Shown piece by piece: positions 1,973-60,463 of a stretch of DNA of 64,000 nucleotides. Below the pieces are notes generated by a model that saw nothing but the letters and a program-made list of their open reading frames with translations, was not told the origin of the DNA and made no database searches. The stretch is from the NCBI GenBank assembly GCA_964501905.1, contig CAZCTW010000002.1, positions 67,821 to 131,820 on the forward strand. Direction: 5' to 3'. The DNA is from an uncultured Thermofilaceae archaeon (lineage in GTDB: Archaea; Thermoproteota; Thermoprotei; Thermofilales; B69-G16). How positions within the stretch are numbered: position 1 is the stretch's first letter; each line of letters starts with the position of its first letter. Position numbers and translations under genes: made by a program.

Positions 1973-4378
1973 TTAATTAGTTTTAATTTTTCCCTCTTCG
2001 ATAGATATAACTTTGGCTCCCTCGGCGTCCACATCCACGTGGGTTATCAGTATTATCTGTTTAAACTGATCTCTCAGAGTTTTAGTTAACAAATCTACGA
2101 TGTTTTTCCTCCTATTACTGTCGGATGAGGAGAGAGGCTCATCTAGAAATAGAAATCTGGGATAGGTTTGCTTGGTCTCAGGCAGAAGTGAAAGTATAAA
2201 AGCTAGCCTCATGGCTAAGAGTAGCTGATCGACCATGCCCCCGCTGTAGATGTCCTTCGGCACAAATTTTCCGGCTTCCGAGTCAAGTACCTCTATATTG
2301 TAGTTTGAGTCAAGCCGGACGGCTTTATACCTACCACCAGTTATTATAGATATTATATGGTTCATATTGTTCTCTATCGCTGGTTGAAACCTTTCTCTAA
2401 TGCTCTTAGCTACCTGCCTTAAGCTAGTTATGGCTATTTCCTGTGCTTCTACGATTTTCTCCAGCTCTTTAATTTCTTTCTTCAATTTCTCGTATTCCTC
2501 CTCTACGCCCTCGTTTTTCTTTATCCTCTCTTTCAGACGTTCTATCTGAAGCTCGAGCTGCCGTATGGTGCCCTTTAGCGCGGCTACTCTAGCGGTTAGG
2601 AGGTTATACTCTGCCTCAACGCTTCGATATAACTCCTCACTGTACGATACTCTATCTGGTAGTTCCGGCAGAGATATACTGTTTACCTCTTTTTCGAGAA
2701 CAGACACTTCCTCCTCTTTTTTCTTTATCTTCTCGATAGTCTCTGCGCGCAGTTTCTCTAATTCGTATATCTCTACGCTGAGGCGAGAAATTCTACTCTT
2801 TAAATTTTTGATTCGCTCTTCAGAAGACAATATTTTATTTTCTATGGATATCTTCTCCCCCCTTGCCTCCTCAACTCTTTTAGAGACTCCTTCCAAGAAC
2901 TCGTACAGAGTATTCCAGGACTCCGGCTTATATTTCTCCGGTATCGAAGCTTTAATCTCCTCCAGCTCTTCCTCTAATCCTTTAGCCTGGTTTTCGATTA
3001 TTTGGAGTTCTTTACGTTTTTTTTCTAAATCTTTTTCTCGCTCTCTCATTAAGGAGAGTAAGCCGCTATACTTTCTAATTTCATCTTTAACTAATAGAGA
3101 TCTCGACGTCAATTTAGATTTAAGATGAGAAATGGCGAGATAGTAGATTACCGCTAGCAGTAGCCCTGTCGCGTAGAGTATGGGTATAAATAAGCCTAGT
3201 AGCGATGTAGAGAGTAAGGCTAGGAGTACGGGGAGGGATATTTTGGTTTTAGATATTTTCTGGTCTAGTTCTTTGTCCTCTTCGATTAAGTTGTTTAGCC
3301 TTTTTTCGTCGACTTTACTCTTTAACTCCTCTATGACCGACTCTAGCTCCGATATCTTAGCTTTTATATCTTTCATTCTCTCTTTTAGGCTATTTAACCG
3401 AGCTAGCTTGTCTTTAGATTCTCCAACGGCTTTTTGAGTTGATTCTAAGTCAATATATTCTGAAAGCTTTTTCTTGTATTCTTTTAGCTTTACTTCTTCT
3501 CTTTCAAGTTCCTCCTTTAAGTTTATTTTTTCTTTCTCTTTGGCGCGCAGCTGTTCTTCTAGCTTGCTCAGAGACTCTTTTAGAGCCCTTAACAAGCTTT
3601 TCATTCCTTCAATTTTAGTCTCTAGATTTCTCTTTTTGATTAAGGCATCCCTATACTCTTTCAAGAGTCTATAAAGGCTTTCTTTTTCCTGGAGCTTCGC
3701 TACCTCCTCTTCGTATACCTTCCTTTTATTTTTAAGCTCTAAACTTTTTTCTCTCAAATCTTCAAGGTCTCGCTTATAGTTCTCTAGCCTCTTTTTAACT
3801 TCCTCTAAAGTCCTCTTTTTAAATTCCAATTCTCTTTTTTTCTCTCTACGCTCTAAAGATAATTTTTCGATAGCTTTGTTGTAGCTTTCTAAACCGAGGA
3901 GAGCATTAATTATCTTCTCCCTCTCCTGCCCCCTCATCTCTATTAGCTTATCAAGCTCTTTTTGAGCTACGACATTCGTCACCAAAATCTCGTTTAGAGA
4001 AAGTCCGCCTAGCAAGCTTTGGATGAACTCGTTAGTCCTCTTCACCGTAGCCGCCTTCCTGATTAAGCCGCCAGTTGGAGTTATCTCGGAGATGCGGGCT
4101 TCAGATTCTCTCCCTCTCCTGATAATTCTCTCTACTTGGTAACGCCTTCCGTCTACTGAGAATATCAATTTAACTTTCGCCACACTAGCTCTATGGTTTA
4201 CGGCTAAGTCTTTAGTGCCTCTAAGCATCCTGCCGAAAAAAGCATAAAGGATTGCCTCGAGAATTGTGGATTTCCCTGCTTCGTTAGGCCCTTTAATTAT
4301 CAACATACCTTTAGGAAATTCTATAGTTAAGTCTAGCTTTCTAAAATTTCTAGCTTCAAGCTTCTCGAGAACTACCAA
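1973..4378 (-). CDS. rad50: Rad50-type SMC-like ATPase (DSB repair); atypical, with no zinc hook and a hydrophobic hairpin at the coiled-coil apex
   Basis: Walker A GPNEAGKST, long K/E/L heptad coiled coils, signature-like YSGGMVDQ, Walker B FLFLDEP and H-loop ILITHV. The start overlaps the mre11 stop (4372-4378). The protein has no Cys anywhere. Confidence 0.85.
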   Translation of the reverse strand: MVVLEKLEARNFRKLDLTIEFPKGMLIIKGPNEAGKSTILEAILYAFFGRMLRGTKDLAVNHRASVAKVKLIFSVDGRRYQVERIIRRGRESEARISEITPTGGLIRKAATVKRTNEFIQSLLGGLSLNEILVTNVVAQKELDKLIEMRGQEREKIINALLGLESYNKAIEKLSLERREKKRELEFKKRTLEEVKKRLENYKRDLEDLREKSLELKNKRKVYEEEVAKLQEKESLYRLLKEYRDALIKKRNLETKIEGMKSLLRALKESLSKLEEQLRAKEKEKINLKEELEREEVKLKEYKKKLSEYIDLESTQKAVGESKDKLARLNSLKERMKDIKAKISELESVIEELKSKVDEKRLNNLIEEDKELDQKISKTKISLPVLLALLSTSLLGLFIPILYATGLLLAVIYYLAISHLKSKLTSRSLLVKDEIRKYSGLLSLMREREKDLEKKRKELQIIENQAKGLEEELEEIKASIPEKYKPESWNTLYEFLEGVSKRVEEARGEKISIENKILSSEERIKNLKSRISRLSVEIYELEKLRAETIEKIKKKEEEVSVLEKEVNSISLPELPDRVSYSEELYRSVEAEYNLLTARVAALKGTIRQLELQIERLKERIKKNEGVEEEYEKLKKEIKELEKIVEAQEIAITSLRQVAKSIRERFQPAIENNMNHIISIITGGRYKAVRLDSNYNIEVLDSEAGKFVPKDIYSGGMVDQLLLAMRLAFILSLLPETKQTYPRFLFLDEPLSSSDSNRRKNIVDLLTKTLRDQFKQIILITHVDVDAEGAKVISIEEGKIKTN

Positions 4379-5538
4379 GCTCCCGCCTCCTCTAACCTCT
4401 CTAACCCCATTTTCTTAGCTTTCTCGATAATCTCCCTTCTTTGAGGATTTTCCTCTTTTTCTATAAGTTCATCCATATATTTCGAAAAAGCCTGTAGAGG
4501 CGAGAGCTTAATGCCAACCTCTATTTTCTCCATTTTATACTCAAGCTCGCTGTCATCTACTACGACAATAAAGAAGTGGTCGATTAGCCTGCGAAAAACT
4601 TCATCCCTCCTATACCTGGTCAGCACTTGTAGGGGGACTTTACCGCCTATCCTAAGTCTTAGGATAAGTTCTTTATCCCTGTATTTTAATGCATAAGAGA
4701 CTATATCGCTTATAGGAGATCTCGACTCGGGACTAAGCTCATACTTTAGAGTTTTCATAGGTCTTGTGGGAACTTCTATAAACCTCCTCTTAACTCCTTC
4801 TTCGCCCAGTTCAACCCATAGGAAGCCCTTCTTTTCATCGCCCTCCTCTAGGAAACTTCTTCTCTCCGTACTCCCCGGATAGGCTATATACGTCCTTTCT
4901 CTACGCGCTTCCTGAAACCTATGTATATGCCCCGCTGCGACGTAATCTATGCCCTTCGGTATATTCGCTATCCTAACTAAAGCCTCTCTGCCATAGCTAG
5001 CGGATTTAAAACCTTCTATAGGATAGTGTAGCATGGCTATGTTCAAATCACCCTCTACAGGAGGCTTGCTACGGGCTAGCGGATCCTCACCTTCTCTAAG
5101 CTCAAAGTTATAGGTTATCCCTGATACGCAGACATCTAAATCTCCGATTTTCAAGTGTTCAACTTGGAATTCCCTAGTTGAGGAGAAATACGTTACATAG
5201 CCGGATGCCGCTAACTCGTCTAGAGGGGATGCTCCTTCCTCTACTGAACGCGGAGTATCGTGGTGTCCCCCTATAACGAAGATCTTTATTCCTAAGCTGT
5301 GTAGCTTTCGGAAGTACTTTAGTAACTGTACTCTAGGGGGGTTTCTAGGGTTAACTCTGTCGTATAAATCTCCGGAGATTAACATAATATCGGGCTTATG
5401 CTCAACTGCGTAGTCTAATATCCGCTTAAAAGCCCTCCAGAAATCAGCCCTCCTCTCCATTATTTTCGGATAGTACATAGGAACGGAGGGGTCTAGGTGG
5501 TTATCAGCTGTATGAATTATCTTAACTGACAAGATCAC
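4372..5538 (-). CDS. mre11: Mre11 nuclease (calcineurin-like phosphoesterase)
   Basis: Phosphoesterase motifs are HTADNHLD, GDLYD, GGHHD, MLHYP and GHIH. It lies in an operon between herA and rad50 with overlapping stop/start codons. Confidence 0.9.
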   Translation of the reverse strand: MILSVKIIHTADNHLDPSVPMYYPKIMERRADFWRAFKRILDYAVEHKPDIMLISGDLYDRVNPRNPPRVQLLKYFRKLHSLGIKIFVIGGHHDTPRSVEEGASPLDELAASGYVTYFSSTREFQVEHLKIGDLDVCVSGITYNFELREGEDPLARSKPPVEGDLNIAMLHYPIEGFKSASYGREALVRIANIPKGIDYVAAGHIHRFQEARRERTYIAYPGSTERRSFLEEGDEKKGFLWVELGEEGVKRRFIEVPTRPMKTLKYELSPESRSPISDIVSYALKYRDKELILRLRIGGKVPLQVLTRYRRDEVFRRLIDHFFIVVVDDSELEYKMEKIEVGIKLSPLQAFSKYMDELIEKEENPQRREIIEKAKKMGLERLEEAGAW

Positions 5539-7142
5539 ACCTCAGACCAAATAGTACCTTCCCGCGCCACCACTAGCTCCTGTTCTCTCCCCAACTCCTC
5601 CTCTAAACCGGCTTCCTCCATCGCCGCTTTAAGCTTCTCAATCACGTCTATATCGGCGCCGCCCTCCCTTGTCCTCCTCTTCCTAATCTTAACCATAACA
5701 GGGACTTTAGTTACCTCGCCTACGATCACAGCTTCGCCCACGTTTAGCCCCGGTAGATCCCTGAGTAAATCCTCGCTCAACCGCTCACTCGACTTGATTA
5801 TCGCCTCTTGATCCGTAGGATTTGAAACTTTCAATATTATCTGGCTATTACACTGGCTCAGGGCATCCGGGTCTATTTTAGATGGCCTCTGGCTTATCAG
5901 AGTCATGAAAACACCGAACTTCCTGCCTTCGGCTGCTATAGTGTTTATGATTTCCCTAGATAGTCTTCTTACCTCTTTCTTGGGTATGAACTTATGAGCT
6001 TCCTCGACGAAGATGAAAACCGGGTACCTGAACTTTTGAGTGGAAACTTGGTGGAAAACTTCCGTCAATATCCTATAGGTTATGTAGTCCATGCTAGAGT
6101 CGTTAAGTCCTGAGAGGTCAATGACGGAGACTTGGGCAGGCTTTAGCATTTCGCTTACAGGAGTAGTCGCCGCTCCGAAGACCTTAAGCCGTTTCAACTT
6201 TCTAACGTATTTAAGCGCCCTCAGGGCGTGCGGATTTCTGGAAGAAAGCTCCTCTATCTTTTCTATTAAATGTTCGGAAGTGTAGGCGTCCCCCATATTC
6301 TTTCTTAGCCCTTTAACAGCCTCGGTTACAGCATTTCTTATATTAGACCATTTTTCCGGAATATTCAATATTTCACATATTTCTTCTCCAGTTAAATCAG
6401 AAAATCTAATAGTATAGTCGTATACGTTATCTAGCTCGCTTTTAGAGTACCTACCTGTGCTGTTAGGGTTTCGGAAAACTTTAATTCTATCAGCGTACTC
6501 GTACCTGCTCCCGTCCGGCTTCCTGCTCAAAAAGACATAGTCGGCATGGGGGTCTATAACTATCACAGTGGCGCCTTTCTGTAATAATTCCTCCACCAGC
6601 ACGCCCACCGTGTAGGATTTTCCGGCACCGGTCTGAGCCAGTATGGCTAAGTGTCTTTTAAACCCATTTACGGATATGAAGACGGGTATTTTAGGCCTTG
6701 AGATCAAGTAGCCTATATGCAATCCTTCTTCCTTAGAGTATGAGAAAAACTCCGCTACTAGTTCGTCGGGGGCTAAGTATACCTCGTTACCCGGGTATAT
6801 AGCCCTTCTGGGCATTAGTATTTCCTTCTTGCCTTCCGTAGCTATCATGTATCCTAGCGTCCTAGCTTTACATATTACATTTACATCATCTATCCCCGCT
6901 CTGTATATCCTTTCGAGCGCCTCGAGGTCTAGGTCCTCCCTATACGATAGGCTACGCGAAACTACGCCTACGACTTGTGCGAGGACTTGCACTCGTTCTA
7001 CGCGATCCCCTGCTAGCTCCTTCGAATACACCGTTACGTATTCGTACTTCGGCGGGTGGCTTTCCTTATCGGCTACGAAGAGGAACTCCGTAGGAGATGC
7101 TTCCTCTACGATTCTCCCAATGGGCTTAGGGGTAGCGTACAC
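5535..7142 (-). CDS. herA: HerA hexameric DNA translocase/helicase (FtsK-HerA superfamily)
   Basis: N-terminal HAS-barrel-like region (PIGRIVEEASPTEFLFV), Walker A AQTGAGKSYTVG and Walker B VFIFVEEAHKF. It overlaps nurA and mre11. Confidence 0.9.
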   Translation of the reverse strand: MYATPKPIGRIVEEASPTEFLFVADKESHPPKYEYVTVYSKELAGDRVERVQVLAQVVGVVSRSLSYREDLDLEALERIYRAGIDDVNVICKARTLGYMIATEGKKEILMPRRAIYPGNEVYLAPDELVAEFFSYSKEEGLHIGYLISRPKIPVFISVNGFKRHLAILAQTGAGKSYTVGVLVEELLQKGATVIVIDPHADYVFLSRKPDGSRYEYADRIKVFRNPNSTGRYSKSELDNVYDYTIRFSDLTGEEICEILNIPEKWSNIRNAVTEAVKGLRKNMGDAYTSEHLIEKIEELSSRNPHALRALKYVRKLKRLKVFGAATTPVSEMLKPAQVSVIDLSGLNDSSMDYITYRILTEVFHQVSTQKFRYPVFIFVEEAHKFIPKKEVRRLSREIINTIAAEGRKFGVFMTLISQRPSKIDPDALSQCNSQIILKVSNPTDQEAIIKSSERLSEDLLRDLPGLNVGEAVIVGEVTKVPVMVKIRKRRTREGGADIDVIEKLKAAMEEAGLEEELGREQELVVAREGTIWSEV

Positions 7143-8448
7143 GCCTCACATCCCTCGTATGCTCTATTAAAAAGTCGAGTTCTTTGCTTAATATAGGCTC
7201 GTAAATTTTTAAAATATCGGACATCCTAAGCTTTACCTTAGAATCTACGTCTTCCATTAAGACGTTATAGTGGCGGGGGCCGGCGTATAGCTGGTTTAAC
7301 AAGGATAGTAGCTGCTCTAGCCTATTTTCAAAGCCCTCTAGTATCGCAAACCTTGAAGAAGTTTTAACGTTATCGCCTAGGATCCACGCCGGCGCGTCGA
7401 CCCTAATTGGTATATCCCCCTTCTTCGGGAGGTAGTAGAACATGACAATATCGGGATATTGGAGAATTCTAGGCAGAATTTTAAGCGCTTTTTTATAGAC
7501 TACGCTTTCCGCCTCAGCTATAGCGTTTGAAAAACTCCTCTCAATATACTTCCTCAATTCCCCCTTCTCGATAGCGTTGACTAGAGAATCCAGCGCTGGA
7601 GCCGGTGTTTTCAATAACGCAGGAACAGTATAGCCAGGTTTATCTATAAGCCTAGTTATCAACTGTATATCCGGCCGTGGAGCTAGGGCTTCCCGAAGCA
7701 TTTCCTTCACCCATGGAGGCACTCCTTTAATGCTCTTGAGCTTTTCCAGCGATTGCTTGGGATTTTTCCAGAGAGCATTCCAAGCTTCTATAATTTGGCA
7801 GGAGATCTCTCCCCCTAGCGAACTTTCTCCGATTTTCTTGGTGAGCTCCTCGAAAAGCAATACCCTCTTATAGATGCGCGATTTAGAGTCCTTACTTAAC
7901 CCGATAACCAATACGTTCTTCTCCTGTGCTTCCTCGAAGAGCTCGCTGTAAACTCTTATATAATCTAACATGAAGCCTTGGTATCCGGGTATTTCGGAGT
8001 CCTTTGGCAGGTGCGCCATTCTTCCATAGAGAGAGCCATCAATGAGTATTACACTGTTATCTCCACTCGATATCTTCCTTAGACACTTCAAAGCCAATAT
8101 GTGCTCTAGGTGTTCTCTCATCCGGCTCCTGAACACGGTTAACCCCACGTTATCAGTCGGATAGAAGGGAGTTATCTCCAGCTCTCTCTCCTCTATCCCT
8201 CTATTTGATAGAGCTAATGCTCTACAAATATGGATAACCACGCCTTCCTTGTGCTCTATCACTCCGTCGCTACTATCCACCGCTATGACCTCTCCCTTGA
8301 ACTCCTCAGTCTGAGGCAGAAGTCTCCAGTACTTCCGAAATAGGTCCTGATAGAGTTCCAGACTATCTCGCGATAGGAGCAGAAGTTTCTCCAGAGATTC
8401 CCTTTTGTCTCTTAGTTTCTCAAGGTATAGATCAAGGAATCTAGGCAT
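7126..8448 (-). CDS. nurA: NurA 5'-3' nuclease
   Basis: NurA-like acidic motifs VIAVDSSDG and ILIDGSLYGR. It is the first gene of the herA-mre11-rad50 operon and overlaps herA by 17 nt. Confidence 0.8.
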   Translation of the reverse strand: MPRFLDLYLEKLRDKRESLEKLLLLSRDSLELYQDLFRKYWRLLPQTEEFKGEVIAVDSSDGVIEHKEGVVIHICRALALSNRGIEERELEITPFYPTDNVGLTVFRSRMREHLEHILALKCLRKISSGDNSVILIDGSLYGRMAHLPKDSEIPGYQGFMLDYIRVYSELFEEAQEKNVLVIGLSKDSKSRIYKRVLLFEELTKKIGESSLGGEISCQIIEAWNALWKNPKQSLEKLKSIKGVPPWVKEMLREALAPRPDIQLITRLIDKPGYTVPALLKTPAPALDSLVNAIEKGELRKYIERSFSNAIAEAESVVYKKALKILPRILQYPDIVMFYYLPKKGDIPIRVDAPAWILGDNVKTSSRFAILEGFENRLEQLLSLLNQLYAGPRHYNVLMEDVDSKVKLRMSDILKIYEPILSKELDFLIEHTRDVRRVRYP

Positions 8449-53403: not shown

Positions 53404-56400
53404 TTAGTTTTGATTCCCTGTAGTATGCGAATGCTTTAAAGCTAAATGAAGCTTGTATATGGTTTCTAGGTTCTCCTCTATGTACTTGCCCAGTTTTTTC
53501 TGTAGATAACGTGACGAAGCAATCCATTTCGAATAAGGTTTATCACGTATGTACCTGCGCGTATTCTCCCACTCCATCCTTACATCCTGTAGGTGTATGG
53601 TCCTGTTCCACCCCAACGCGCTCTCAACCTCCTCTAGCGGAAGTCTATCCACCTCGAAGATTTTCACCGCCTCCTCCTTCACGTCGACGACCTTTCCCAT
53701 ATGTTTTAATCCTATCAGTAAAGCGGCGAGCGATTTCAACTCGTTATTCATCAAAGTTCTGGTTAAATCGTTTAAGCCGTAAACCGCTAAGGTAAAGTCT
53801 TTATCTAGAAACTCTCTAATCCTATCTTCGACCTCTCTAACCTCCCTCCCGATGATGTAAAACTCTTTAAAGGATTCTCGAACTAAAAACTTCTCGCCAT
53901 CGTACAAGCCAACCGCTATAAGCTCCACCCTTTCCTCCTCATCCAAAGGCAGGCTTAGGGCGTCCAGCGCGGCTACCTTTAAGGCTCTCGACGGCTTAGG
54001 CACATATATCTCCTTATCTCTAATTTTCAAAGCTATCTTCTCTCTAAGTAGCAGGTAGCTTAATGCCTTCAAAGCGGCTTGTTTAGCTATGTCCCACCTC
54101 AATCCGCTGGCGGCGAGCTCGAGGTGGGCGTCCTCGTCTACCGCCTGTAATAGTACTTCAGTCAACTCGTCGGGCTCGAAGCTTTCCACTTTCTTCATGA
54201 CGTTGAGCCAGTCTAGTTTTTCAAGGAGCCCGGCGCTTTCAGGCTCGTGGAGTATTATCAACTTCTTCTCGCCAACTTTGGCTATATCGTACATTATGGT
54301 CTCGAAGGCTATCCGGTACTCGACCCTGAGGACGACCATAACTAGCGCAAGCCCTATACGCAACCACGTGAGATCCTCGTCGGGCTCTAACTCGACAGAT
54401 ATCCCGTACGTGTAATCGTTGTATTTGCCATAGGTTCCCGTGGGGACTTCGATGACTTTTAAATCCCTCAGCACTAGAGTTTTCCCATCCACGGGTATTA
54501 GCTTGCTCTTTCTCCCCCGCAGTATCCAGTGTACTCTGTTCGGTATTTTAGTGTAGATACCAAAGCCTCTTAACGGAGGATGGACGACGCATATAACCTC
54601 CGAGTGCAATCTACCCGCTACGTAATCTCCGAAAATGTTCGGCTCCTCCCCCCATCTGTATTTAGCTTTCCTATACTCTTCATAGGCGTAGGCTAATGCG
54701 TCGTTCCCCCAGATAACCCGCTCGCTCAGAGGCTCCTCAACCACAGCTGTGACAACTCTCCCCGACTTGCCCCCAAGTCTGTGAGATGTCACTATGGCAT
54801 CTTCAGTGTAGTCTATACAACCGGGCTGAAATTTCTCGACTAAGTCGCAGAAGGATATATCCTCCAGGTACTGTTGCTCGTCATATCTAGCTTTCACTCT
54901 TTTAATGCCGAACGGGGGTGAGAACTCGTAGAAGTTTAAGTTAGTCCACGCGCTCTTCCCCCTCCTAGTCAGTTCCCCCTCTTTAACTAAACCAAGCTTC
55001 TCCAAGAACTTATACTCCTCCTTAGACAAGTGCTTCCTCATCGTGGGAGATACGAACTTATAGAGGGATTCGAAGAGCAGGGAGTACTTGTTATCGGGGT
55101 TTACGATCGCGTGCTCTAGAGGTAGCTCTAGCCAAGATTTAAAGACGGATACTCCCCGCGTCAACAATTCTCTATCCCATCTAAGCACGGGGAAGATAAT
55201 GCTTTCGGTAAATTCTATCTCCTTCCTCCGACCCTTCCTCCCCTCCCTCTGGTGGTACTCTCTAACATCATCAGGCAGACCTACGTGGACGATACGCACG
55301 ACAGTCCCTATATCTATCCCTTGAGCAAGTGTTCTAGGAGTGAAAATCAATTTTACACGCCCCTCTCTAGCTCCCTGCTCAATAAGCTCTCGTAGAGCTT
55401 TAGACACTAAGTGGTGGTGAGTTGCTATCATATCCGCGCGGTTTCGGGGCAGCCTATACTTCAATTTCCTAGCGAGTTCCTCGGCTTTAGCTATACTCCT
55501 CGTGAATACGAGCGTTACGCCCTCATCGTCTAAGTATTTCTCCAAGATTTCGGTGGGGTCGAGCTCTACTCTAGGAACTTCTAATCCCAAGGCTTCGAGA
55601 ACTTCTAGTACTTTGTAGAAGTTCTCCTTGAATGAGTTGAAATCCTCCAGCGAGTCGATGATATCCTTCCCTACTCCCGGAGCCGAAGATAGGATGTCTC
55701 TATACTTTCTAACTATATCCCATATACGCCTGAGGTTTTTACCTAGGATTATATAGGTTTTGTTAGGTACTTTGAAAGCTTTCCCGTAGATAATAGCGGT
55801 TTCCTTACCGTTTATCTCCGTTAAGAAAGCCCCTAACTCCTTTGGATTCCCTAGAGTCGCGGTTAGAATAGCTATCTGAAAGTTAACCGGGGATAATACC
55901 CTCAATATCTTAATCATCGATAACAGTAAAGCTATCTCCCTCGGAGAGTAGAAATCTAGTTCATCTACAACTAATAGTTGGAATTTCGGTATAAGTTTGG
56001 ACAGTACGGCGTTTCTGCTACCTACGGCGTGCCTTTTGAGATCCATGAGGAGAAAAGCCGGGTTTGTTATCAGTATCTGTAAATTTCCTATGTAATCCCT
56101 AAGTCTGCTTCCCTTAACCCCCTTCCTGTAGAATTCCTCTCTTCTCTTGGCATCTATAACGTCGACTTGAATCCCCACGACACGGGCGTAACTCTTAATT
56201 CTATTGATTTGGTCGTTAGCAAGGGCTAGCGTCGGGTAAAGCACTAGAGCTTTTACGCCCTTCTTAATCGCGTAAATTAACCAAGCCTCTGTCTTGCCAG
56301 AGCCTGTTCCAGATCTAAGTATTACGTTTTTGCCGTTTAGCAGAGCCTTATATGCCTCGTACTGGTGCTTATAGAGTTTTTTACCTGCGAGCCTTCCAGC

Positions 56401-56577
56401 GTGTCCATCGGCTTTTTCGAATTCCGGGATTAAATCGCTGAAAGTGAGCTCGGCTAGATCGGGCTCTTCCCCTCTTTCTCCGAAGGCGTAGTAGTCGTAA
56501 CCTAGATTCTCCAGCACGGTTAAGCTATCTATAGGCACTTTTACACCGTAAGCTATTTCGCGTTGAGCGTTATTCAA
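53404..56577 (-). CDS. Large SF2 DEAD/DEAH-box helicase, YprA/MrfA/Hrq1-like core with a ~580-aa C-terminal region (DUF1998-like but lacking Cys)
   Basis: Motif I SGTGSGKTEAW, Ia LYPTLALANDQ, II VVDELD, III LTATL, V FTPRTLAQGIDIG and VI HQREGRKGRR. The tail contains the block YRIAFETIMYDI...ILHEPESAGLLEKL. Confidence 0.85.
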   Translation of the reverse strand: MNNAQREIAYGVKVPIDSLTVLENLGYDYYAFGERGEEPDLAELTFSDLIPEFEKADGHAGRLAGKKLYKHQYEAYKALLNGKNVILRSGTGSGKTEAWLIYAIKKGVKALVLYPTLALANDQINRIKSYARVVGIQVDVIDAKRREEFYRKGVKGSRLRDYIGNLQILITNPAFLLMDLKRHAVGSRNAVLSKLIPKFQLLVVDELDFYSPREIALLLSMIKILRVLSPVNFQIAILTATLGNPKELGAFLTEINGKETAIIYGKAFKVPNKTYIILGKNLRRIWDIVRKYRDILSSAPGVGKDIIDSLEDFNSFKENFYKVLEVLEALGLEVPRVELDPTEILEKYLDDEGVTLVFTRSIAKAEELARKLKYRLPRNRADMIATHHHLVSKALRELIEQGAREGRVKLIFTPRTLAQGIDIGTVVRIVHVGLPDDVREYHQREGRKGRRKEIEFTESIIFPVLRWDRELLTRGVSVFKSWLELPLEHAIVNPDNKYSLLFESLYKFVSPTMRKHLSKEEYKFLEKLGLVKEGELTRRGKSAWTNLNFYEFSPPFGIKRVKARYDEQQYLEDISFCDLVEKFQPGCIDYTEDAIVTSHRLGGKSGRVVTAVVEEPLSERVIWGNDALAYAYEEYRKAKYRWGEEPNIFGDYVAGRLHSEVICVVHPPLRGFGIYTKIPNRVHWILRGRKSKLIPVDGKTLVLRDLKVIEVPTGTYGKYNDYTYGISVELEPDEDLTWLRIGLALVMVVLRVEYRIAFETIMYDIAKVGEKKLIILHEPESAGLLEKLDWLNVMKKVESFEPDELTEVLLQAVDEDAHLELAASGLRWDIAKQAALKALSYLLLREKIALKIRDKEIYVPKPSRALKVAALDALSLPLDEEERVELIAVGLYDGEKFLVRESFKEFYIIGREVREVEDRIREFLDKDFTLAVYGLNDLTRTLMNNELKSLAALLIGLKHMGKVVDVKEEAVKIFEVDRLPLEEVESALGWNRTIHLQDVRMEWENTRRYIRDKPYSKWIASSRYLQKKLGKYIEENLETIYKLHLALKHSHTTGNQN

Positions 56578-56578
56578 G

Positions 56579-57148
56579 TTAGCGCTTTACAAAACGTTTA
56601 GTTAACAGGTAGATAACGTAGAGCGGAATGAAGACGTTATTCAAATAAACCAGCAACGTGAGGAATATCGATAGAGAATAGTACATTAAGATGCTGTTTG
56701 ACTTCTCGGCTAGCTTTAAAAAAACGAATACAATAACCGTTCCGAGTAAGTGAACCGCTAAGTAGCCCCTAGCCCCCGTCCTCTCGTAATTAACTTCTTT
56801 CAACTCGAGCAATATATAGCCTAGCGCGTTCGCTGCGGCTATTCCGGCTAGGGCTCCGGTTATAATCCTTATGTCGTTAGTGCTCTCCCTAAACCCTAGA
56901 AACTGGGTTAAACCGTCTACAACTATAGGGGTTAAGAAAGCAAGTGTTGCGAAGATATTGTAGTAGAACCTTCTAGTCTTATACCTGTAGAAAATCCAGA
57001 TGTAGCCTAGAAAAAGCCCCAAATTTATCGCCGTACACCTCGAGCATAAGGGCAGCTGGAGGCCTGCTATGAAAAGCGATCTTGAGGGTATCTGGTGGCA
57101 GAAAAAGCTATTGAGGTAGAATAGGAGTTTGCGGAGCCAGTCACACAT
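56579..57148 (-). CDS. DUF2085-family membrane protein
   Basis: FFCHQIPSRSLFIAGLQLPLCSRCTAINLG is the DUF2085 signature. It has 5 TM helices and lies 1 nt downstream-adjacent to the helicase start. Confidence 0.65.
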   Translation of the reverse strand: MCDWLRKLLFYLNSFFCHQIPSRSLFIAGLQLPLCSRCTAINLGLFLGYIWIFYRYKTRRFYYNIFATLAFLTPIVVDGLTQFLGFRESTNDIRIITGALAGIAAANALGYILLELKEVNYERTGARGYLAVHLLGTVIVFVFLKLAEKSNSILMYYSLSIFLTLLVYLNNVFIPLYVIYLLTKRFVKR

Positions 57149-57935
57149 ACCAGGGTTGTTCAGGTTCTCCTCTTCTCCTCTCCTTTACCCTTTCCCACAG
57201 TTCTCTGAGTTTAACCATTTCTTCCTCTTTTCTCTTGAAGTCCCTTATCATTTTGTCTAAGTCTTCTAGACTGATCTTTATTTTTAGGATCTCTACTAAC
57301 GCTTTAACTATTTCCCTAGCCGCCTCCGGATCTACATAAGTCCTTTGAACAGCACCCATGAGTATGAACGTTTTAAAACCCCTTATCTTAGCCAGTCCCG
57401 GCAATACTCCACATGCTCCCGTAACGGAACCGCTGGATGAGACCTTAAATCCGAGTTTTTTAAGATATTCTAAAGTTTCGGGATCGTCAGCTGTGCAGAA
57501 AACTCTACTCTCCTCCCCCGCGGCAGTAGTGCCGCACACAGCGATCACCATTTTGCCTCCCATCTTCTCAAAATACTCTAGGACCTTCCCCGCGACCTCG
57601 TACTGACCCCAAGCGACTGGTTGAGTGTTTCCGGCTAGGAATATAACGTCGTGTTCCTCTCCTCTGTACAGATAAAACTCGTACCTCGGCAGGTTAAATG
57701 TGCCGTCTATCTCTATGAATATCCCGGCGTTTCCTTGAGGTAGCAATAGGTGGGATGAATAAAGCTCGGCTATCTTAGGCAATTTAAGCTCCTCAATTAT
57801 ATAGTCCACCGCTAGCTTACCCACTAAGCCCAAGCCCGGCAATCCCTGCACTAGTATCGGTTCTTTAAGCTTCGGCGTTTCATATTCTACAAGTTTAATA
57901 AACGCCATTCTAATGCCCAAACCTATGAGGAGCAT
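57141..57935 (-). CDS. PAC2-family (proteasome assembly chaperone 2-like) protein
   Basis: PILVQGLPGLGLVGKLAVDYII pattern and a helical charged C-terminal tail. It overlaps the DUF2085 gene by 8 nt. Confidence 0.7.
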   Translation of the reverse strand: MLLIGLGIRMAFIKLVEYETPKLKEPILVQGLPGLGLVGKLAVDYIIEELKLPKIAELYSSHLLLPQGNAGIFIEIDGTFNLPRYEFYLYRGEEHDVIFLAGNTQPVAWGQYEVAGKVLEYFEKMGGKMVIAVCGTTAAGEESRVFCTADDPETLEYLKKLGFKVSSSGSVTGACGVLPGLAKIRGFKTFILMGAVQRTYVDPEAAREIVKALVEILKIKISLEDLDKMIRDFKRKEEEMVKLRELWERVKERRRGEPEQPWYV

Positions 57936-58012
57936 TAAACTATTAAATGTTGCCTTAAGCCTGTAATCTCATGCAAATATATTTTAAAATCAAAATCTAA
58001 ATATAAACGCTG

Positions 58013-58064
58013 ATGATGAGACTGTTCCCAAACCGAGCGGATGAGGCTTCTCCTCCTTTGCTGA
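58013..58064 (+). ncRNA. Candidate C/D box sRNA in the leader of the HerA-like gene
   Basis: C box AUGAUGA (58013-19), a 13-nt guide, D' CCGA (58033-36), a 4-nt spacer, C' AUGAGGC (58041-47, 5/7 match), a 13-nt guide UUCUCCUCCUUUG and D box CUGA (58061-64). An AT-rich TATA-like stretch at 57977-57990 lies about 25 nt upstream. Confidence 0.35.
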
Positions 58065-58085
58065 CTTTAAGCTCGAGGCGGAAAA

Positions 58086-59285
58086 ATGCAGGTTAAATCT
58101 AAACGCGGAGATGAAGTTAGACTATACTGCGACTTGGAAGAGAGAGTGGAAATAGGCGAACTCATAGAAATCTCAGAGGAAGATAGGAGCGTTGTAGTTC
58201 AAATATTAGATATAGAACAGGACTCCGAGCTCATCCTATCTGGGGAGAAAGGGAGAGAGGTTTTAGCTAAAATAAGACTTGAAGGCATAGGCGGAGAGAG
58301 CCGCGTGTACAAAGAGTGGAGCGGATGGTTCCCCTCCACACCCGTGCTGGTGAAAAAGGTAAGTGCAAGCAGGATCCTGGCGCCAAACATTTGGCAGGAA
58401 AGTCTCCCTCTCGGCTATGAGAGAAACAGCGAGGAACTTTTCCAAGTATCTCTCCAGAACCTTAGAACATTAAACATTGTAGCAGGATTTCGCTCTGAGA
58501 ACCTACTAGCTACGTTAGCCGCTATTCTTTGCCTTAAGGGTTACAGGGTGATAGTATTCGATAGTACTGGGCGTTTCGCTAAGTTAATAAGGAGAAGCTT
58601 TAGAGAAAGGTTCCGGCGCTTTACAGTCGGAGACGAGATAAAACTTCCCATAGCCGAGCTAGGAGGAGTGTGGAGGGATTTTCTAAGTATTTACGGGTGG
58701 ACTGAGCCTCTAATCACCATGTTCGATAGCGTTTATAAAAGCTTTAAAAAATCGAAATCTCTATCCTTTAAGAGTATAGTTAGAGAACTATCCCTTAGAA
58801 AAGATACGGAGCTATTCGTGGATTTCCTCTGCTCACTAAATGAAGTACTAACTGATGAACACGACGAAATCAATCTGGGCAGGCATGTTATATTAGATCT
58901 TTCGAAGTGTGATAGCCCGTCCGCGCTGCTTACAATTCTGCATCGTCTTATCAAACAAGACTACAACTTTTTACTGATCAATAATATTCAAGCTCTTCAC
59001 GTACCGGATTTAGAGAAGCTAGCCCGATTACTAATATCTAAAAAAGACGCAGTGTTTATCGATATAGGCGTCGACACAGAGGCGAGCGTACTGCTCCGCT
59101 ACGCTGTAAACTTATTCTTTACAGGTCCTTACAATAGGCTTTTAGAAGATCTATTCCCCCTGCTAGAGAATGAAGAACCGCTACTACGCAAGCTATCCTC
59201 CGAGGAATTCCTAATCAACGGGTTTTTAACCAAGAATACACCTGTAATACTGACTATGCTCAGACCGGAAGACTTCCTAGGATGA
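58086..59285 (+). CDS. HerA/FtsK-like protein with inactivated P-loop (pseudo-ATPase)
   Basis: N-terminal HAS-barrel-like segment (GELIEISEEDRSVVVQILDI). The region aligned to the window's own HerA Walker A ([36 protein letters not shown]) reads LNIVAGFRSENLLATLAAILCLKGYRVIVFDST. The Walker B position (FIFVEEAH) reads FLLINNIQALH. Confidence 0.6.
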   Translation: MQVKSKRGDEVRLYCDLEERVEIGELIEISEEDRSVVVQILDIEQDSELILSGEKGREVLAKIRLEGIGGESRVYKEWSGWFPSTPVLVKKVSASRILAPNIWQESLPLGYERNSEELFQVSLQNLRTLNIVAGFRSENLLATLAAILCLKGYRVIVFDSTGRFAKLIRRSFRERFRRFTVGDEIKLPIAELGGVWRDFLSIYGWTEPLITMFDSVYKSFKKSKSLSFKSIVRELSLRKDTELFVDFLCSLNEVLTDEHDEINLGRHVILDLSKCDSPSALLTILHRLIKQDYNFLLINNIQALHVPDLEKLARLLISKKDAVFIDIGVDTEASVLLRYAVNLFFTGPYNRLLEDLFPLLENEEPLLRKLSSEEFLINGFLTKNTPVILTMLRPEDFLG

Positions 59286-60463
59286 TAAACGTGTTGTTTT
59301 CCAGGTTATACGTAGGGACTTCAGGTTGGGATTACGAAGATTGGATAGGCCCTTTTTATAGCAGTGAGAAACACTTATTCTTCCAATACTCTGAAGTATT
59401 CAATACTGTCGAAATAAACTCGACGTTCTACTCTTATCCATCAGCTAACTTCATCAAAGGATTAGCTAGAGTAGCCCCTCTCGGTTTTAAGTTTTCAGCT
59501 AAAATACCTAGAGAAATAACCCACAAGAAGAAGCTAAACCCCTCTCTTGGAATTGAAAACGATTTAAAACGTTTCCTGGAGATAATGCACCCCTTAAAAG
59601 CTAGCGGAAAGCTCGGAGCATTCCTCGTCCAACTCCCCCCTTTAGCTAGAAAAGACCTACACCACTTCGAAGATTTCTTAAACATATTACCAACAGAGAA
59701 GTACAGGTTTGCTGTAGAATTTAGACATGAGTCCTGGCTCTGCGAGCAAATTTACTCCCTCTTGGAGAAGTACAACGTCGCCTTCACAATCGTGGACGAA
59801 CCGCTTCTACCCCCCGTGATCAAAGTTACCGCGGGCTTCGCCTATATAAGGTGGCATGGGAGAGGCAAAAGACCCTGGTATTACTACATGTATTCCATCA
59901 AAGAACTCGAGGAGTGGAAGCCAAGAGTTAAAAAAGTCATGGAGGAAACAGGCATAGTTTTCGGATATTTCAATAACCATTTCAGGGGGTATGCTCCCGC
60001 AAACGCTCTTCAAATGCTAAACCTCCTCGGTATAATCAATAGAAACCAGCGTAGAAAACTAAAGGAGATAGAATACTATTTCAACAGGAGAATAGCGGAA
60101 CTAATTAAGGAAAAAGCTAGGAAAATCCAACCCGAAAAAGTGAGCCTGGAGGATCTGCTCCTACTCTTTTTAGACAAAAAACGCTTAGAAAGAGGTAGAG
60201 AAATCCCCGACTCACAGGTTAAAATACTCGAGGCTAGCGACTCATTAATAAAGGCAAGAGTGAAAAACTATACGATAATTATAGATTTCAAAAATAAAAC
60301 AATTCTACACGACTGCGCGGACTGGGAGAAACGCTGCACTTCAATGCAATTCTGCAAACATATGGCAAAGCTATTCCTAACCATTCCGGGAAAACTTGCA
60401 CGAGAAACTCTGGCAAAAATAGCAGGCGAACTAGACGAATGGGAATTTAAAACAAAAACTTAG
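59282..60463 (+). CDS. DUF72 (YecE/UPF0759 TIM-barrel) protein fused to a C-terminal SWIM-type zinc finger
   Basis: LYVGTSGWDYEDWIGPFY is the DUF72 N-terminal signature. The C-terminal LHDCADWEKRCTSMQFCKHMAKL fits the SWIM pattern (C/H-x-C-xn-C-x-H). Its ATG overlaps the stop of the upstream gene (ATGA). Confidence 0.8.
   Translation: MINVLFSRLYVGTSGWDYEDWIGPFYSSEKHLFFQYSEVFNTVEINSTFYSYPSANFIKGLARVAPLGFKFSAKIPREITHKKKLNPSLGIENDLKRFLEIMHPLKASGKLGAFLVQLPPLARKDLHHFEDFLNILPTEKYRFAVEFRHESWLCEQIYSLLEKYNVAFTIVDEPLLPPVIKVTAGFAYIRWHGRGKRPWYYYMYSIKELEEWKPRVKKVMEETGIVFGYFNNHFRGYAPANALQMLNLLGIINRNQRRKLKEIEYYFNRRIAELIKEKARKIQPEKVSLEDLLLLFLDKKRLERGREIPDSQVKILEASDSLIKARVKNYTIIIDFKNKTILHDCADWEKRCTSMQFCKHMAKLFLTIPGKLARETLAKIAGELDEWEFKTKT

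Follow-up and report, generated by a model that had tools for sequence, protein, structure and literature searches.

A HerA paralogue without ATPase motifs adjoins a long-form DUF72 gene in a small clade of heat-loving archaea

A HerA-derived protein and a long-form DUF72 protein at one locus

We analysed a 64,000-nucleotide (nt) stretch of genomic DNA from an uncultured Thermofilaceae archaeon (contig CAZCTW010000002.1, positions 67,821 to 131,820), hereafter the window, and concentrated on two adjoining plus-strand genes close to its end. The first (58086-59285, +) is an open reading frame (ORF) of 399 amino acids (aa) from the ORF list, which we refer to as dead HerA as, judged from its motifs, it is a HerA paralogue no longer able to bind ATP or to hydrolyse it. 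Within the HerA family it represents a new variant of very narrow occurrence, found in a small group of heat-loving archaea. The second (59282-60463, +) encodes DUF72L, a long-form DUF72 protein of 393 aa in the window, in which a TIM barrel is followed by a helical linker and a SWIM-like, putative zinc-finger domain.

Both ORFs are present in the sequence, and so is the ATGA start/stop overlap at 59282-59285 (+, context ggATGAtaa) by which the original prediction, made on the same window, had joined them. Since DUF72L orthologues begin with MLFSR, and the equivalent codon in the window is a GTG at 59291, this GTG may be the true DUF72L start, 5 nt past the stop of dead HerA. The two genes adjoin under either choice, and among relatives their spacing ranges from a 14-nt overlap (-14) to a 17-nt gap (+17). 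By this arrangement the pair reads as a single transcription unit for which translational coupling is possible, and in a small Thermoprotei clade dead HerA is probably both co-transcribed and translationally coupled with DUF72L.

Dead HerA is a HerA homologue that has lost its catalytic motifs

The HerA layout that had been assigned to the 399-aa protein, from an alignment by eye with the bona fide, live HerA of the window (herA, 5535-7142), was borne out over the full length. In a profile-profile comparison (hhalign) the dead-HerA family aligned with four live HerAs, the window herA among them, with 98.2% probability and an E-value of 6e-14, across 381 columns from residue 2 to residue 396 that cover the barrel, the core and the C-terminus. 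A comparison of this kind was needed to recover the alignment made by eye, because the dead-HerA profile, when searched directly, leaves the window's own HerA unmatched at E<=1. The Pfam family DUF87 (PF01935) likewise scores dead HerA at only 16.9 bits (E 0.007), below its gathering cut-off of 23.2 bits. Against 1.84 billion representatives the family profile returned two significant clusters, the window's own and a protein of 40% identity (P0010), and its weak matches (E 2e-5 to 2e-4) were three ordinary HerAs whose P-loops (GSGKS/GMGKS) are intact and which score well with DUF87; among 5.8 billion proteins the family amounts to nine 90%-identity clusters. The AlphaFold (AF2) model of dead HerA is poor, with a predicted local distance difference test (pLDDT) of 55 and about 70-89 in the core (residues 140-330), and its best PDB fold matches are HerA chains (8suw_P, 4d2i_A). 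On these comparisons we conclude that the HerA homology of the 399-aa protein is genuine.

With the HerA of the HerA-NurA system (S. solfataricus HerA, 4d2i), dead HerA shares the barrel, the RecA-like core and the C-terminal segment, but it has a deleted or degenerate Walker A, no acidic Walker B and about 100-135 residues less. Its best conserved part is the N-terminal barrel-like domain (aa 1-100, 58086-58385, +), which aligns with the N-terminus of live HerAs and carries an AKIR...W.GWxPS signature inside the region alignable to them. The closest live relative (P0013) belongs to a NurA-HerA-Ogg operon. Some Thermoproteota carry a second, non-canonical module of NurA (about 340 aa) and HerA (499-536 aa), located at 2385-6301 in locus L093 and at 4968-8083 in locus L091, which is followed once by dead HerA and once by the 8-oxoguanine glycosylase Ogg. 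This non-canonical NurA-HerA module appears to be the source lineage of dead HerA.

The catalytic motifs are degenerate throughout the family. At the Walker A position, aligned to the G(A/S/M)GKS of live HerAs, dead HerA reads AGFRSENL (aa 133-140, 58482-58505, +), and all seven family members share a 3-residue deletion there together with the loss of Gly-Lys; the family consensus is AG(F/I/L)(R/H/D)S(E/D)xLL where live HerAs have GxGKS, and GxxxxGK[ST] is absent from the site. A scan of the whole 399-aa window protein found no GK[ST], and the sole GKT in the family occurs in one member, non-conserved and outside the P-loop position. The Walker B strand is represented by FLLINN (aa 295-300, 58968-58985, +; AF2 predicts a strand at 295-299), and instead of the EE of live HerAs the family reads NN, TN, NG or GG. 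The original prediction of a Walker A and B loss without any GK[ST] is thereby upheld. MAFFT had placed the invariant E310 under the Walker B glutamate; we rejected this residue as a Walker B remnant because the residues before it do not make up a hydrophobic strand and the predicted strand is FLLINN. One member of the family (P0004, 433 aa) carries an exact 25-residue tandem duplication, LNVIAGLDSEELLAVLTSILYIKNN, over the degenerate P-loop (alignment A1 columns 135-159), a real repeat or else an artefact of assembly.

Dead HerA is nevertheless under purifying selection. Between sub-lineages the proportion of synonymous differences (pS) is 0.68-0.9, which is saturated, and that of non-synonymous differences (pN) is 0.12-0.45; where the synonymous rate could be estimated, the ratio of non-synonymous to synonymous substitution rates (dN/dS) lies between 0.078 (L004 vs. 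L007) and about 0.16. Conservation is uneven along the protein: across the seven members, down to 40% identity, invariant columns make up 46% of aa 1-100 and 45% of the C-terminal segment (aa 336-399, RYAVNLFFTGPYNR...EEPL, 59091-59282, +), compared with 4-17% in the core. In genuine HerA the barrel face and C-terminal elements form the ring and dock NurA, and the uneven conservation fits a dead HerA that has been retained for assembly or partner binding, not for catalysis. Loss of all catalytic motifs, the fastest evolution in its gene block and a very narrow distribution are also what would be expected of a decaying pseudogene or an annotation artefact, an explanation that we find barely credible for this ORF. 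The reading frames are intact in all lineages (about 396-408 aa), long invariant stretches persist at both termini down to 40% identity, and we reject decay because the dN/dS of about 0.08-0.16, with synonymous sites saturated, shows purifying selection.

DUF72L joins a TIM barrel to a conserved putative zinc finger

The second protein is a DUF72 protein, as had been proposed: PF01904 matches it at E 3e-60 (204.4 bits vs. a cut-off of 25.3) over aa 33-247 (59378-60022, +), and in the PDB its family profile finds T. maritima TM1631 (1vpq, E 2.4e-54) and 1vpy (E 5.6e-29). DUF72L shares the TIM barrel with the DUF72/YecE/TM1631 structures (1vpq, 1vpy, 1ztv), and a pair of conserved aromatic residues is aligned to the TYY loop of Tm1631 (PMC3828134), but compared with the solved and bacterial DUF72 proteins (about 270-290 aa) it adds a 145-residue extension made of a helical linker and an HxCx12CxH domain. 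The DUF72 TIM barrel is reported to be a close relative of UV-damage endonuclease (UVDE), and the family to be enriched around damage-inducible PolB2 operons (PMC11791011); Tm1631 has been predicted to be an endonuclease IV (Endo IV)-like enzyme acting on lesions in which two neighbouring nucleotides are unpaired (PMC3828134). DUF72L resembles the UVDE/Endo IV and FEN1/Rad2 repair scheme in this reported relation of the barrel (PMC11791011, PMC3828134) and in having FEN1 as a recurrent neighbour in three archaeal phyla. At the sequence level, however, our searches matched DUF72L to neither UVDE nor Endo IV. The DUF72L profile (A4 positions 205-338, window aa ~207-340) also matches plant mitoribosomal bL9m (9evs_1H, 6xyw_Ag, 9gyt_1H) at E 1e-5 to 2e-5, in a stretch that takes in the barrel end and the long linker helix, and these matches may be driven by helix or composition.

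The C-terminal ~145 residues (domain aa 245-393, 60014-60460, +) were modelled with a pLDDT of 93.6 as a long helix, a four-stranded sheet and a helical bundle. Within them lies a putative zinc-binding motif, HxCx12CxH (HDCADWEKRCTSMQFCKH, aa 343-360, 60308-60361, +), of which, in the model, HDC ends strand 4 and CKH opens the next long helix. H343, C345, D347, C358, K359 and H360 do not vary among 33 diverse homologues from many phyla, and the 18-residue spacing is kept in 54 of 56 long-form genes.

The original prediction had called this region a SWIM zinc finger. The Pfam SWIM profile (PF04434) did not match the window DUF72L even at E<=10 and gave no match to the isolated C-terminal domains, and among the relatives it gave weak matches in 4 of 33 (best E 0.03), with no member at the Pfam threshold. 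By the threshold that the prediction had set for itself the assignment failed, but three independent, weak signals still point to SWIM. Fourteen of 23 isolated C-terminal domains match the N-terminal positions 19-69 of NCBIfam NF053675 (Snf2 helicase; best E 1.9e-6), a region which we take to be the SWIM finger of prokaryotic Snf2 helicases, and the top fold match in the viral library BFVD is a 'SWIM-type domain-containing protein' (probability 0.92, E 0.08, 79 columns, 4.2 Å). The third signal is the CKH half-motif, which is canonical, as is its secondary-structure setting. Searches of the PDB by fold and by profile, and of phages by tblastn, returned nothing meaningful for the C-terminal domain. 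The SWIM domain (PF04434, and the N-terminus of prokaryotic Snf2 helicases) and the DUF72L domain are alike in a sheet followed by a helix, in ligand pairs placed where the strand ends and the helix begins, and in an identical CKH half-motif, but DUF72L departs from the SWIM signature CxCxnCxH in having HxC for CxC, is sub-threshold in Pfam and has no PDB fold match. This weaker evidence points to a divergent, SWIM-like, putative zinc finger in which the first Cys is replaced by His. The DUF72-zinc-finger architecture has apparently gone unrecognised because it falls below the SWIM threshold.

Distribution and gene neighbours

To place the pair in a wider context, we compared at least 53 non-redundant archaeal DUF72L loci, in which the partner gene was sought within 6 kb at E<=10. 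DUF72L-type proteins of about 385-400 aa, aligned at 97-99% coverage, occur in Thermofilaceae (Thermofilum, Infirmifilum), Bathyarchaeia and Nitrososphaeria, and also in Nezha-, Brock- and Methanomethylicota, Asgard and Thermoplasmatota genomes. The DUF72-zinc-finger architecture is therefore old and widespread in archaea, and this wide taxonomic spread means that the fusion is ancient and was not gained in the window lineage, contrary to the suggestion that the finger had been acquired here.

Dead HerA follows a very different distribution. It lies next to DUF72L in only 4 of the 53 non-redundant loci, all from the window's clade; in the other 49 no dead HerA was found within the search distance, and for 38 of these 49 the available upstream sequence amounts to 1.3 kb or more. 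A metagenome scan brought in only three further loci, all from this clade and with an identical gene order, and dead HerA abuts DUF72L on one strand in all nine loci of the clade. The clade consists of three sub-lineages (100, 65 and 49% identity), between which synonymous sites are saturated, and the abutting or overlapping frames kept over such divergence argue for co-expression. Linkage of the two genes in other genomes thus exists, but it is confined to one clade, and the expectation of a conserved two-gene system across distant genomes was not borne out.

These counts bear directly on the idea, close to the original prediction, that dead HerA and the DUF72-SWIM protein are a dedicated, obligatory two-component nucleic-acid system of scaffold and effector in a pairing that is undescribed. 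In its favour are the ATGA overlap or 5-nt gap in the window, the spacing of -14 to +17 nt held in three synonymous-saturated sub-lineages, and the known role of HerA proteins as scaffolds of nucleases or effectors (NurA, SIR2), with 8suw among the fold matches. We nonetheless judge it unlikely, as DUF72L occurs without dead HerA in 49 of 53 loci spanning at least three phyla, the most divergent dead HerA has no adjacent DUF72L, the dead-HerA family makes up only two significant clusters in 1.84e9 representatives, and the defence models of PADLOC match neither protein. SIR2-HerA and DUF4297-HerA resemble the pair in setting a HerA-type protein beside an effector enzyme, with 8suw as the top fold match, but their HerAs are active ATPases, and the window pair lies in a conserved housekeeping neighbourhood instead of an island. 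In PADLOC-DB only the generic helicase core of a 1057-aa neighbour was matched, and a defence role for the pair was dropped for want of PADLOC matches to dead HerA or DUF72L.

In locus L093, which carries the most divergent dead HerA (P0010, 40% identity), the genes run in the order NurA (340 aa), live HerA (536 aa), dead HerA and class V fructose-1,6-bisphosphatase (FBPase), the first three on one strand with gaps of 5 and 60 nt. One member of the family is thus encoded directly after a NurA-HerA pair, in likeness to the HerA-NurA system, whereas the window dead HerA precedes DUF72 and has no NurA upstream. In the window NurA does not adjoin dead HerA but is part of the canonical cluster (7126-8448). 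Dead HerA shows no BLAST-level similarity to the neighbouring 536-aa HerA in L093, and it is therefore not a recent tandem copy of it. This locus gives weight to another explanation, in which dead HerA would act solely with genuine HerA and NurA, as a ring cap or mixed-ring regulator of end resection, and its position beside DUF72L would be an inherited gene order in a compact genome. The same-strand NurA-HerA-dead HerA arrangement in L093, with its short gaps, speaks for it, as do the closest live relatives, which are HerAs in NurA-HerA-Ogg operons, the synteny of the entire surrounding block in the clade and the presence of a canonical herA-mre11-rad50-nurA cluster in the window (1973-8448). 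However, no NurA or HerA adjoins dead HerA in the window clade, the overlap or near-abutment kept over saturated synonymous divergence exceeds mere neighbourhood, and dead HerA is not a recent copy of the L093 HerA; we consider this explanation possible but doubtful.

Two other genes recur around DUF72L. In 19 of 53 DUF72L loci the neighbour is another, distantly related DUF72 paralogue of about 305 aa (Pfam DUF72 E 1e-23 to 1e-33), either directly upstream in tandem or divergent, an arrangement that suggests heteromeric pairing of DUF72 proteins. In the window there is a single DUF72 gene, and no second paralogue was found. FEN1 lies within 4 kb in 10 of the 53 loci, in Thermoproteota, Asgard and Thermoplasmatota, and directly abuts in about six. 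For example, FEN1 genes (XPG_N/XPG_I) are located at 4890-5915 in L009 and at 7180-8202 in L010, and occur also in L013, L023, L050-L052 and L054-L056, in genomes of Asgard, Nitrososphaeria, Thermofilaceae and Thermoplasmatota. In Thermofilum pendens the DUF72L gene is near endonuclease III and dCTP deaminase. Paralogues of ~300-320 aa before a DUF72 gene, of the long or short form, were recorded at L015, L018, L020, L024, L025, L028, L029, L033-L035, L037, L042, L050, L052, L053, L055, L056 and L064, and the set also takes in L059, L070, L072, L073, L076, L077, L082, L087 and L090.

A proposed non-catalytic adaptor for a candidate damage endonuclease

From the homology, motif loss, purifying selection, gene order and distribution observed here, we favour, with a probability of roughly 0.55, a reading of dead HerA as a lineage-specific, non-catalytic, HerA-derived adaptor that is co-transcribed with DUF72L, a probable damage endonuclease. 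Dead HerA would be kept mainly for its N-terminal barrel and C-terminal segment and, coming from the NurA-HerA module, would assemble into a ring and, without catalysis of its own, give repair nucleases an oligomeric adaptor or platform. It would physically engage DUF72L in the window clade and serve the NurA-HerA pair in one distant relative (L093). DUF72L would be a DNA-lesion endonuclease that nicks 5' of damage, its SWIM-like finger, if it binds zinc, would add DNA holding, and the nick would then be processed by FEN1, which removes the flap. In S. pombe, Uve1-Rad2 works in this order, with a nick 5' of the damage and FEN1-type flap removal, and the FEN1 adjacency of DUF72L fits such nick-initiated excision repair. 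The adaptor reading is also supported by the repair-nuclease contexts of P0013 (NurA-HerA-Ogg) and P0010 (after NurA-HerA). Dead HerA is then most likely a lineage-specific accessory, not the obligatory half of a two-component system. It has a parallel in iRadA of PolB2 operons (PMC11791011), likewise a RecA-fold ATPase paralogue that has lost catalysis and is kept beside DNA-repair enzymes, although dead HerA derives from HerA, not RadA, and no PolB2 was seen in the window neighbourhood.

Several observations weigh against the adaptor reading. DUF72/YecE structures have been solved, and we know of no DUF72 protein for which a biochemical activity has been demonstrated. Dead HerA is the fastest-evolving gene of its block, with 64 and 48% identity in the two sister lineages, compared with 76 and 72% for DUF72L and 94 and 76% for the PAC2-family neighbour. 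Synteny in the clade extends over the whole ~12-kb block, PAC2, helicase, FBPase and M24 genes included, so that conserved adjacency by itself is little informative and the linkage of dead HerA to DUF72L may partly reflect shared ancestry. At the L093 locus there is no DUF72 gene beside dead HerA, and no PAC2 or helicase gene either. Finally, the monomer model of dead HerA is poor (pLDDT 55), and, whereas the identities of the two proteins are well founded, their interaction and activities are what we infer.

A bolder form of the adaptor reading, which we put forward as a speculative and improbable extension, would make DUF72L the missing nicking endonuclease of a FEN1-coupled archaeal 'alternative excision repair', with a HerA-derived pseudo-translocase ring recruited in the clade as its loading platform or activator. 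If true, nuclease and dead motor would form a module analogous to NurA-HerA that is ATP-independent.

Being restricted to a few uncultured Thermoprotei, dead HerA is of limited general importance. It illustrates how a motor ATPase can become a non-enzyme that selection maintains in a repair setting, and is relevant to how ring ATPases get recycled as scaffolds. For DUF72/YecE, a very widespread family with solved structures, the loci provide three testable clues to an action on DNA lesions: the archaeal long form with its conserved finger, the repeated adjacency of FEN1 and the repeated adjacency of a second DUF72 paralogue. The associations with FEN1 and with the DUF72 paralogue are the most useful outcome for this long-standing DUF.

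Neighbouring genes in the window

The genes before the pair are on the minus strand and encode a radical-SAM protein, a 1057-aa superfamily 2 (SF2) helicase, a DUF2085 protein and a PAC2-family protein; after the pair come a convergent TrmB-type regulator and then a class V FBPase. A 'large repair-type helicase operon' had been described as lying divergent from the pair, which holds for its orientation, but it is just the next syntenic block on the other strand and is absent from L093. Nothing beyond synteny in the clade was found to tie the helicase, DUF2085 or radical-SAM genes functionally to dead HerA and DUF72L.

The PAC2-family gene (57141-57935, -) encodes a homologue of proteasome assembly chaperones (E 8.5e-38) and has in common with dead HerA an A+T-rich intergenic region of 150 bp (57936-58085). 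Its product ends in ...QPWYV, which is HbYX-like, and the 94% sister-lineage identity given above is that of this protein. It enters a further explanation, according to which dead HerA would be a proteasome-associated ring akin to PDB 9s34 'Archaeal proteasome activator 1' and work with the divergent PAC2 chaperone. 9s34_A is the sole PDB sequence match of dead HerA (phmmer E 0.27), a local, sub-significant similarity between aa 116-168 (58431-58589, +) and 9s34_A residues 17-70, to which hhalign gives 34% probability with 35% identity in 52 columns at the degenerate P-loop. The matched region of 9s34 also has no GK[ST], and the PAC2 gene, with its WYV HbYX-like tail, is divergent from the pair in all clade loci. 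No 9s34 score is significant, however, the 9s34 fragment matches no Pfam family and no live HerAs, 9s34 is not among the fold matches of dead HerA, and a literature search found no publication on it; moreover, dead-HerA C-termini carry no HbYX motif and L093 has no PAC2 gene. A proteasomal role for dead HerA is therefore very unlikely. The 9s34 entry itself holds seven chains.

The remaining features stand apart from the pair. The canonical repair cluster (1973-8448) lies on one strand (-) and consists of nurA (7126-8448), herA (5535-7142), mre11 (4372-5538) and rad50 (1973-4378). Upstream of dead HerA in locus L007, a 714-aa ORF (3-2144, -) matches PAC2 in its first 145 residues and is unrelated in the rest, which could reflect a rearrangement or a chimeric contig. 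The 1057-aa SF2 helicase (53404-56577, -) has an Lhr/Cas3/BrxHI-like core at aa ~65-460, followed by ~600 residues without a family match, and is 74-82% identical across the clade.

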